Source: Eledone cirrhosa (Eukaryota). Taken from it: 64,000 nt of DNA. The DNA lies in NCBI GenBank assembly GCA_964016885.1, contig OZ024765.1:2170001-2234000 (forward strand), read 5' to 3'. The translations under genes and the position numbers were made by a program. The stretch's first letter is position 1. Each line of letters starts with the position of its first letter. The notes under the pieces are model-generated. The model worked only from the letters and a program-made list of their open reading frames with translations. It ran no database searches and was not told where the DNA came from. Of this stretch, positions 28,709 to 40,780 are shown piece by piece.

Positions 28709-28710
<2 letters not shown>

Positions 28711-28888
28711 CGAAGGAATTGTGGTAAGGAACCAGATCGATCATAACGCGCCAAAGTACTCAATACTTAGTGTAGTAGAGTGGGTAATAGGAACAAGTAT
28801 GACCCCGACGGCAGAGCTCAAGCCGTTTCGAGTCCAGAAATAGCCGTCGAAACGGCTTAAGCTCTGCCGTCGGGGTCATACTTGTTTC
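28709..28888 (-). mobile_element. F1 fold-back element
   Basis: Same tail and hairpin, in (TA)n. Confidence 0.85.
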
Positions 28889-29244: not shown

Positions 29245-29665
29245 TGAAGTAAAAGTTAAGTGGAAACCTCCAAGAGTAAGAGCACTCAGTCCATAGGACG
29301 AGTTTAGTATATATAATTACAACAGTGACATAAACAGGTACTCAAGTTTCGTTGGGTTCTGGGCCCCAATTTCTTCAGCCTATCATGAGAAACCTGAATG
29401 ACAAAGATGGCCGCCTTTGGTTGATTCTGTTTTTCCTAAGGGGATATAACAAAAGAGTTTTCTTTTCTTTAAATAACCCCCTTTTTTCTATACTTTTTAA
29501 AATTACCTGCCCCTGCGTGAACTCTTTTGTTTCATCCCCGTAGGGAAAACACAATCAACCATAGACGGTCATCTTTGTATTTCATTTTTTCTCATGACAG
29601 GCTGAAGACATTGGGGCCCACAACCCAACGAAACTTAAGTACTTGTTTATGTCACTGTTGTAGTT

Positions 29666-29672
<7 letters not shown>
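29244..29672. mobile_element. Fold-back element (arms ~29308-29460 / 29520-29672) with a hammerhead motif in each arm
   Basis: Diverged inverted arms between (TA)n tracts. Confidence 0.7.
29596..29647 (+). ncRNA. Type I minimal hammerhead motif; mirror copy on the minus strand at 29333-29384
   Basis: acagg-CTGAAGA-c-attggg..cccaac-GAAA-cttaag-TA-cttgt; palindromic stem III ACTTAAGT; GUA triplet. Confidence 0.65.
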
Positions 29673-29725
<53 letters not shown>

Positions 29726-34497: not shown

Positions 34498-35526
<1,029 letters not shown>

Positions 35527-40353: not shown

Positions 40354-40462
40354 ACGTACTGATGAAATAGCTCAGTACCTCTGAAATATGTATAATAAAA
40401 TATATTTGATCACATGTCTATATTTATTAATATTTTGAAGTTATATATATATATATATATAT

Positions 40463-40673
40463 AGGAACGAGTAGGACCCCGACGGCTGAGCTCAATCCGT
40501 TTCGACGGCTAATTCTGGACTAATCGACTAATTTAGTCCACAATTAGCCGTCGAAACGGCTTGAGCTCAGCCGTCGGGGTCCTACTCGTTCCTATTACCC
40601 ACTCTACTACCCTAAGTATTGAGTACTTTGGTACGTTATGGTCCACCTGGTTCCTTACCACATTTCCTTCGTT
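40463..40673 (+). mobile_element. F1 fold-back element (longest hairpin)
   Basis: ~65-bp arms, apex ggactaatcgactaatttagtcc, full tail. Confidence 0.9.
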
Positions 40674-40747
40674 ATATATATATATATATATATATATATC
40701 TTTATTTTCTGTATCTCTCCTTCGTGATCCTGTCTCTATTTTTGTAC

Positions 40748-40780
40748 TCCCGAAGAAGGGCTAAAACCCGAAACGTCGAA
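40748..40780 (+). ncRNA. Degenerate PLE-type minimal hammerhead
   Basis: CCGAAGA-a-ggg-ctaaaa-ccc-GAAA-cg-TC; core position U4 is C. Confidence 0.45.

Follow-up and report, generated by a model that had tools for sequence, protein, structure and literature searches.

Retrotransposons of the Penelope-like (PLE) type are known for a peculiar insertion layout, in which an inverted truncated copy accompanies the element and a 'tail' is present on one side only (PMC8557442, PMC3846280, PMC2377424; here and below, papers are cited for those portions of their text that were available to us). The closest described group is the Hydra clade, whose marks are RW[KR], DKT, CxCX5C, CxxC and CxH motifs in the protein (PMC8557442). 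In the available text, how PLEs come by the inverted copy and the one-sided tail is stated to be undefined (PMC8557442), and what their hammerhead ribozyme does is called unclear (PMC8557442, PMC11167929). For one purified Penelope-like enzyme, cleavage and extension of both strands were shown, with copying initiated at two internal sites of the RNA between which the 'tail' lies, and a dimer is predicted (PMC11167929).

The stretch of DNA analysed here (64 kb, hereafter the window) carries 29 arms of a hairpin family, F1. They make up about 17 insertions, of which 11 are adjacent pairs, one is a pair whose arms are separated by about 177 nt of filler (46776/47077) and five are single or near-single arms. 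Genome-wide (3.0 Gb), 62,608 exact 19-mer arm matches were counted vs 0 for the reversed control, and the density in the window is about twenty times the genome average, the two counts using different methods. From the look of its SINEs, the host may be an octopod cephalopod. The copy at the centre of this study had been described in the initial annotation as half a hammerhead folded back on itself, and the hairpin is real: two near-identical opposed arms (mismatched at 2 of 59 positions) are abutted by (TA)n at both outer ends, and the 3' half of the ribozyme lies at 40542-40580. The 5' core of the F1 family, which the annotation had found missing from every copy, is indeed absent throughout the 64-kb window, so that no F1 copy there has both core halves on one strand. 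A scan of the window against Rfam gave chance hairpin matches only, among the best 150 of 587 rows. With the A of AGTCC (window position 40535) numbered +1, the features of the focal copy and of four sister insertions are as follows.

40442..40463, left (TA)n target run (sequence).
40464..40523, minus strand, tail-less arm, element +58 back to about -2; putative second cDNA, primed at a TTCC/TAT site.
40524..40528, 5-nt copy-specific insert at the apex junction (contig row 2210461, gap 5).
40529..40672, plus strand, tail-ended arm of 144 nt, element -6 to +138; putative first cDNA, primed at a CTTCGT/TAT site.
40533..40539, plus strand, initiator-like TTAGTCC with its A at 40535 (+1); usual 5' limit of arms and likely transcription start.
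40542..40580, plus strand, type I hammerhead 3' half: stem II 3' strand, GAAA at 40553-40556, stem III.
Within 40542..40580, plus strand, predicted cleavage after C 40575 (+41): UC, then the stem I 3' strand GGGGT(C).
40593..40672, plus strand, 80-nt 'tail' between both fixed 3' ends, +59 to +138.
40673..40699, right (TA)n target run (sequence).
2586..2775, plus strand, sister insertion whose two arms have differing subfamily haplotypes (contig row 2172583).
28710..28888, minus strand, sister insertion with the tail-less arm reaching +1 and the tail-ended arm only +17.
46776..47135, minus strand, sister insertion whose apex contains microsatellite filler and a local fold-back of 10 nt.
59738..59870, minus strand, sister insertion in which the arms are disjoint, the tail-ended one covering +73 to +138 and the tail-less one +2 to +58.

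As judged from its sequence, F1 corresponds to the terminal 138 nt of a Hydra-clade PLE that is itself autonomous, and neither to a MITE nor to an orphan half-ribozyme. The parent was found through unpaired arms on contig C1, which showed a common upstream sequence. Its unit, defined from a tandem array of four units with 0-1 differences among them, is 3,531 bp long with a 717-aa ORF starting at +232; upstream of F1 there come a whole hammerhead, then about 1 kb of untranslated sequence, the endonuclease and the reverse transcriptase (RT). F1 is the first 138 nt of the unit and therefore doubles as the ORF leader and the 3' end of the insertion; the tail segment, +59 to +138, is in the parent a portion of the 5' leader upstream of the ATG at +232. 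The array itself (G000:C1:437.198-437.214 Mb; L245, L246) spans 4.5 tandem 3,531-bp units with intact ORFs and 0-1 differences, and many further open frames of about 784 codons are present in the genome; near-identical tandem units together with so many open frames make the family look recently active.

The parent protein has an RT with YRDD at residue 348 and, at its C-terminus, a GIY-YIG endonuclease with VIY...YIG at 591. RWR at 37 is an RWK-type motif, DKT at 117 replaces DKG, GxKF/Y is lacking, CNCPDRSIC at 572 is a CxCX5C linker, CNLC (CxxC) and CKH (CxH) lie at 670 and 698, respectively, and CNLCSEE and LNKKDE are also present. No family was assigned by Pfam to the one 710-aa parent copy searched; 2,036 homologues were found at E<=1e-20, the best being a bivalve protein with PF01541. 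The target is (TA)n: TA-type sequence follows 58 of 58 tail-end arms, and a perfect (TA)5 follows 52 of them. On these protein motifs and the (TA)n target, the parent is assigned to the Hydra clade. Three other assignments were considered and rejected: a Neptune-clade PLE, the CX2-5CxxC linker (looked for in the parent protein) and DKG both being absent; the listed element Hydra-1_Obim, which differs in length and ribozyme; and a non-LTR retrozyme, F1 not consisting of tandem ORF-less units each with a whole hammerhead.

A parent bearing a 5' catalytic core, which the initial annotation had called for, does exist, and its core is (U/C)UGANAA (UUGANAA in 43 of 55 distinct parents, CUGAGAA in 12), not the canonical CUGANGA. 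The parent specifically predicted, gacccc-CTGANGA, has only four matches in the genome, none belonging to F1; another CTGANGA-parent search gave 41, and the 30 examined were apex inserts, chimeras with other families, or chance. CTGAWGAGTCC was also entertained as the parent core and was dropped, the core in the shared parent sequence being (U/C)UGANAA. The UUGANAA-type core is matched 4,655 times in the genome, with another 375 matches for a diverged subfamily, and it is this core with its U3-A8 swap that makes CTGANGA searches miss the F1 ribozyme. The swap is a published hammerhead variant (PMC4209133), and the C3-A8 combination of the CUGAGAA parents is a mismatch. Three stems could be drawn around the core as in a type I hammerhead, with 87.9% of 462 cells paired across 22 aligned parents; three pairs of stem II are altered on both sides, which is essentially one split between two subfamily groups. 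The minimum-energy fold of the young subfamily has the type I hammerhead topology. On the other hand, an Rfam search of the parent gave no hammerhead match, the stability of the parent fold was no better than that of shuffles (z -0.59), and RNAalifold recovered part of stem II from the parents and no more. On this model, cleavage is predicted after C+41.

The layout of insertions was surveyed over 1.064 Mb of contig C26 around the window, where 192 arms were found to form 70 head-to-head pairs. Sixty-six of these join a tail-ended (+138) to a tail-less (+58) arm, three have an interrupted long arm and one is nested; in no case (0/70) are two tailed arms joined. By a second method, applied to 1.154 Mb, 48 partners were found for 59 tail-ended arms, none of them tailed. 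Moreover, among 20 kb-scale loci, whose choice rested on facing core matches or ORF matches and took no account of their ends, all 19 with both ends in view had one end of each kind, and the loci L162, L169 and T1 have one end of each kind apiece. In the parent, TAT comes next at both +58 and +138. TA loose ends at both fixed 3' ends were also seen in contigs from four sequencing runs, one of which may be the window's own sample, with the proviso that contig depth there does not equal copy number. Target-site duplications are unreadable within (TA)n.

The apex, by contrast with these ends, is variable: 62 distinct apex segments were counted among the 66 pairs, as the initial annotation had maintained for the copies in the window, and their junctions comprise 28 with 1-6 nt of microhomology, 25 with inserts, eight blunt and five ambiguous. 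All of the apex sequences that it quoted were located in the window. The one quoted for the focal copy is only in part an apex, since it is present as given but includes TAATTT (40529-40534) before AGTCC, which is parent sequence and not copy-specific. Two F1 copies with the same rare junction lie facing each other, about 1.1 kb apart, at about 2,326,100-2,327,300 of G000:C26; they represent one duplicated event, counted twice in both pair surveys. F1 resembles a MITE, in the sense of a fixed non-autonomous DNA transposon, or one palindromic master that is copied whole, in being short, hairpin-shaped, abundant and flanked by TA, yet such an origin is extremely improbable given the 62 distinct apexes, an inverted repeat that is subterminal at one end, and a parent in which F1 sequence continues without a break to the RT-endonuclease ORF. 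F1 does not have the fixed length and internal sequence with terminal inverted repeats of a MITE. The earlier proposal that the hairpin arises anew at each insertion is supported.

The two arms of an insertion are usually alike. Diagnostic subfamily sites are concordant between arms in 38/39, 51/56 and 50/55 cases vs 0.34-0.52 expected, and a comparison of arm-arm with inter-copy identity, which had been proposed as a check, gave a median of 2 differences in 112 nt between arms vs 9-25 between copies (28 elements). This agrees with the annotated copying of both arms from one template, at least in most cases, and the variants described as mirrored in both arms are so as subfamily haplotypes but not as private mutations, rare variants being mirrored in only 3 of 70. 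The average difference between arms, 5.6%, speaks against fold-back artefacts in the reads. Differing haplotypes were scored by eye in 4 to 6 of 41 scoreable pairs (52 rows, 11 unscoreable), and 3 of 50 listed loci showed mixing at a single site. Matched pairs strictly use one site of each kind, which suggests one RNA per insertion; two RNAs of one source copy would look alike, and arm-to-arm gene conversion could add to the concordance.

We consider it probable that each F1 hairpin results from two target-primed reverse transcriptions, one per end of the cut (TA)n and probably on the same RNA. What was observed directly is the identity with the parent, two fixed 3' ends that occur once each per insertion, arm lengths that are independent of each other, haplotypes common to both arms and junctions that vary. 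The enzyme would prime at the +138 and +58 sites close to the 5' end of the mRNA, so that the cDNAs would run off the RNA after 138 and 58 nt and give F1, whereas priming at a downstream copy of the same sites would give kb-long or multi-unit arms with an unchanged layout. Both cDNA 3' ends would be of the same sense and could not anneal lengthwise; they would therefore be trimmed and joined by microhomology, with templated filler, which would make the apex differ each time. In a minority of insertions, the ribozyme may have cleaved the template at +41/+42, or a different RNA may have served each end.

The main rival is that one cDNA, started at +138, snaps back or self-primes and copies itself as far as +58, with a later asymmetric deletion at the centre of the palindrome changing the arm lengths. 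The initial annotation had favoured snap-back, or a template switch, and junction palindromes in PLEs were read as self-priming, on an antisense template, in the available text of PMC3846280, which comes near to this rival. The haplotypes shared between arms would follow from it directly; some apexes are perfect palindromes, both arms end alike in 14 of 66 pairs, and local fold-backs do occur, e.g. at 47065-47085 of the window, where a short snap-back served as junction filler. However, a snap-back copy is limited to what the tail-ended cDNA contains, and in 33 of the 66 C26 pairs the tail-less arm extends further 5' than the tail-ended arm. When only differences of >=10 nt are counted, the tail-less arm is the longer in 25 pairs and the tail-ended arm in 6 (p=0.0009), and the second method gave 23 vs 4 on 1.154 Mb; the bias weakens to about 14 vs 6, with some rows being alignment artefacts, when restricted to pairs whose tail-ended arm is from +45 or earlier. 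Furthermore, in 10 of 66 pairs the start of the tail-ended arm is at +55 or beyond, so that the arms are disjoint or nearly so, and the disjoint arms of the insertion at 59738..59870 imply in themselves that snap-back alone is insufficient. At the kb scale (19 loci), the tail-less arm exceeds the tail-ended arm in 7, falls short of it in 11 and is about as long in 1; at the extreme, a tail-less arm of 16 kb (4.5 units) faces a tail-ended arm of 281 bp. In addition, the multi-unit arm at T1 passes +58 four times without a stop, and the +58 end is followed by TAT just as the +138 end is. Palindromes undergo deletions at their centre, and a later asymmetric deletion across it could yield unequal arms and variable apexes, but it could not account for single insertions whose arms belong to different families or subfamilies. 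Snap-back was thus not borne out as the general cause, its failure resting on the sequence present only in tail-less arms and on these mixed arms, and we hold the rival as a whole to be quite unlikely. Two primings fit best with both the published biochemistry and the arm counts. No paper on twin or two-ended priming for PLEs was found in the literature searched, with many subscription papers lying outside that search. At the locus L306, the cDNA end recurs in the apex as several short re-primed copies; this is clearly a templated insertion, and it lies at the predicted cleavage site.

The mixed insertions take several forms. At L001 and L019, an arm of an unrelated hammerhead family faces an F1 arm inside one TA run, and at L010, L018 and L027 the F1 arm runs on into another hammerhead family, near the ribozyme of that family, a pattern suggestive of jumping between templates, from the F1 5' end to other RNAs. 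Two tails are present at L285, where two subfamilies are joined, and also at L001. These insertions were drawn through a biased search pattern, so that no rate can be derived from them, and no clear chimeric insertion was seen among 11 unpartnered C26 arms. One of the other families, Z, has a 314-nt unit with a whole hammerhead and a start at TCAGT, and forms long-plus-short pairs of its own as well as pairs with F1 arms. Its loci are listed below.

Family Z: L001, L019 and L250; block of C26 near 1,759,300 and 2,426,600.

The 5' limit of the arms is a zone from +7 to -5 with no sharp edge: among 85 arms with intact +8 to +22, the exact match to the parent extends to +1 in 38, to -4 in nine and beyond -6 in one. 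AGT at +1 is invariant in 22 aligned parents, in an initiator-like context, and we take the AGTCC surroundings to fit the initiator consensus. Transcription likely starts at AGTCC, between the two halves of the ribozyme; that is, a start at about +1 (and also about -4) would fall within the stem II loop, so that the mRNA leader would carry only the hammerhead 3' half. A copied cap would add a G. Of the bases counted before +1 genome-wide (T, G and A), T is present in 18,589 arms, G in 5,540 and A in 821, and the parents have T or C at -1 in 21 cases and G in 0/21; the excess of G is partly due to 1-nt microhomology with the other arm. A TATA-like motif at -29 is missing from the diverged subfamily. 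Alternatively, the two primings would hold and the AGTCC limit would be an RT stall in the long stem II of a longer RNA. The limit does fall in the stem II extension, the ends are scattered over +7 to -5, a few arms reach -13, -37 or -61, and at least 4,655 genome copies pass the limit. Nevertheless, arms of the diverged subfamily end at the same AGT despite another loop sequence, arms of the unrelated family Z likewise stop at their own TCAGT, the G at -1 is non-parental, and the ORF-bearing arms L223 and L236 start at the same place. Drosophila Penelope, for its part, starts transcription inside its pLTR (PMC2377424). A stall is therefore rather unlikely in our view, and a transcription start at AGTCC is retained as the likely cause of the limit.

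Some hairpins end elsewhere. In five C26 insertions, the tail-less arm ends <=3 nt from the predicted cut and the tail-ended arm never lies across it, the p values for these five being post hoc. Genome-wide, 146 loci fold at the predicted cleavage site vs 3-6 in the control, and all six inspected were long-plus-short F1 hairpins. Among 50 such loci listed, 47 belong to the TCTTACT subfamilies, including the young one, and three to TCATACT, vs 28:19 for the corresponding groups at a control apex (249 loci; Fisher p=6e-5); the search pattern excluded the TCCTACT subfamily. The junction sequence equally fits a 2-nt microhomology one base upstream, and a stall at stem III is another possible source of these hairpins, so the about 140 mini-hairpins are suggestive only as a record of the predicted ribozyme cleavage. 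At internal unit junctions, no indel was present at +41/+42 in any of the 21 that were readable, which fits a ligated circle and an uncut multimer alike. We tentatively raise the possibility, as a conjecture somewhat less likely to be right than wrong, that the element splits its own ribozyme by its transcription start and uses it as a switch: the leader of the capped mRNA would be uncuttable, the whole ribozyme downstream would remove the 3' priming sites, monomeric mRNA would yield F1 hairpins only, and long or tandem copies would need an uncut or a re-ligated circular RNA. If true, the +41/+42 mini-hairpins would be a genomic record of in vivo cleavage by a Penelope-like hammerhead, the cleavage product being copied from both ends of the DNA break by one enzyme dimer.

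Other hairpins and ribozyme-like motifs occur near F1. Upstream of the focal copy, 40357-40395 holds a hammerhead-like motif of another family (CTGATGA...GAAA), and downstream, 40749-40780 holds a hammerhead-like degenerate core with GAAACGTC, again of another family. At 5700-6100, 6550-6750 and 29260-29690 there are long hairpins bounded by TA runs, with GAAAC close to the apex or arm; they are probably two-armed insertions of other Penelope-mobilised families. The inverted repeat at 34542-35523 (491 nt, 96%, spacer-free) is largely built of microsatellites. Outside the window, two F1-derived heads lie 476 bp apart on G000:C26 (about 2,036,600 and 2,037,100), with a different common sequence after GGGGTC, possibly as a non-autonomous tandem derivative.

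Copying from two primers would explain the long-puzzling mirror-image layout of PLEs. With insertions that number tens of thousands, and with young copies that are near-identical and carry intact ORFs, F1 allows two-ended priming and self-priming to be compared, and it pinpoints candidate functional sites at +58, +138, +41 and +1. Furthermore, abundant MITE-like hairpin repeats can be by-products of a retrotransposon, and a family with more than 60,000 arm matches has a ribozyme that goes unnoticed in CUGANGA searches.

A known analogue in mechanism is LINE-1 twin priming, in which both target ends prime on one RNA and microhomology joins the resulting head-to-head inversion. In LINE-1 the internal priming sites vary and the two pieces are mostly non-overlapping, whereas the second site of F1 is fixed and its copies usually overlap, implying strand displacement or a second RNA. 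Within PLEs, the parent and the layout are of a known kind; the cited PLE literature, as far as its available text extends, mentions neither this family, nor its core variant, nor leader-sized hairpins in such mass. Hydra-clade PLEs, including Hydra-1_Obim (Craig et al. 2021, PMC8557442), and the parent alike have a C-terminal GIY-YIG endonuclease, a (TA)n target, the RW[KR], DKT, CxCX5C, CxxC and CxH motifs, a hammerhead near the 3' end, an inverted 5'-truncated copy and a one-sided tail. The parent differs in its 3,531-bp unit, the listed Hydra families being mostly under 3 kb (Hydra-1_Obim is 2,507 bp long, with another ribozyme sequence), in its UUGANAA/CUGANAA core vs CUGANGA in all Hydra motifs of File S2, in a tail of 80 nt vs 30-40, and in the mass production of 60-200-bp hairpins, a feature of F1 unlike the Hydra-clade PLEs in the available text of that paper. 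The hammerhead of the Schistosoma PLE Cercyon (Cervera and De la Pena 2014, PMC4209133) shares with the parent the U3-A8 swap, the long helix II and the close spacing of motifs on opposite strands; Cercyon has minimal dimeric motifs, whereas the parent, with a stem III of 5-6 bp, could fold as a monomer. In Poseidon of Anolis carolinensis (PAc; Frangieh et al. 2024, PMC11167929), as in F1, two internal RT starts just downstream of the ribozyme bound the tail, the target is AT-rich and both strands are extended. The PAc starts lack homology to the target, and in vitro neither strand is preferred, whereas the F1 starts both precede TAT and are used once each per insertion; in the available text on PAc, no RNA ends were found at the cleavage site and the inverted copy is left unexplained. 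Finally, animal non-LTR retrozymes (bioRxiv 10.64898/2026.07.22.740005) are, like F1, hammerhead-bearing repeats linked to PLE pLTRs, from which F1 differs in having no tandem whole-ribozyme unit and in being derived from an autonomous element.
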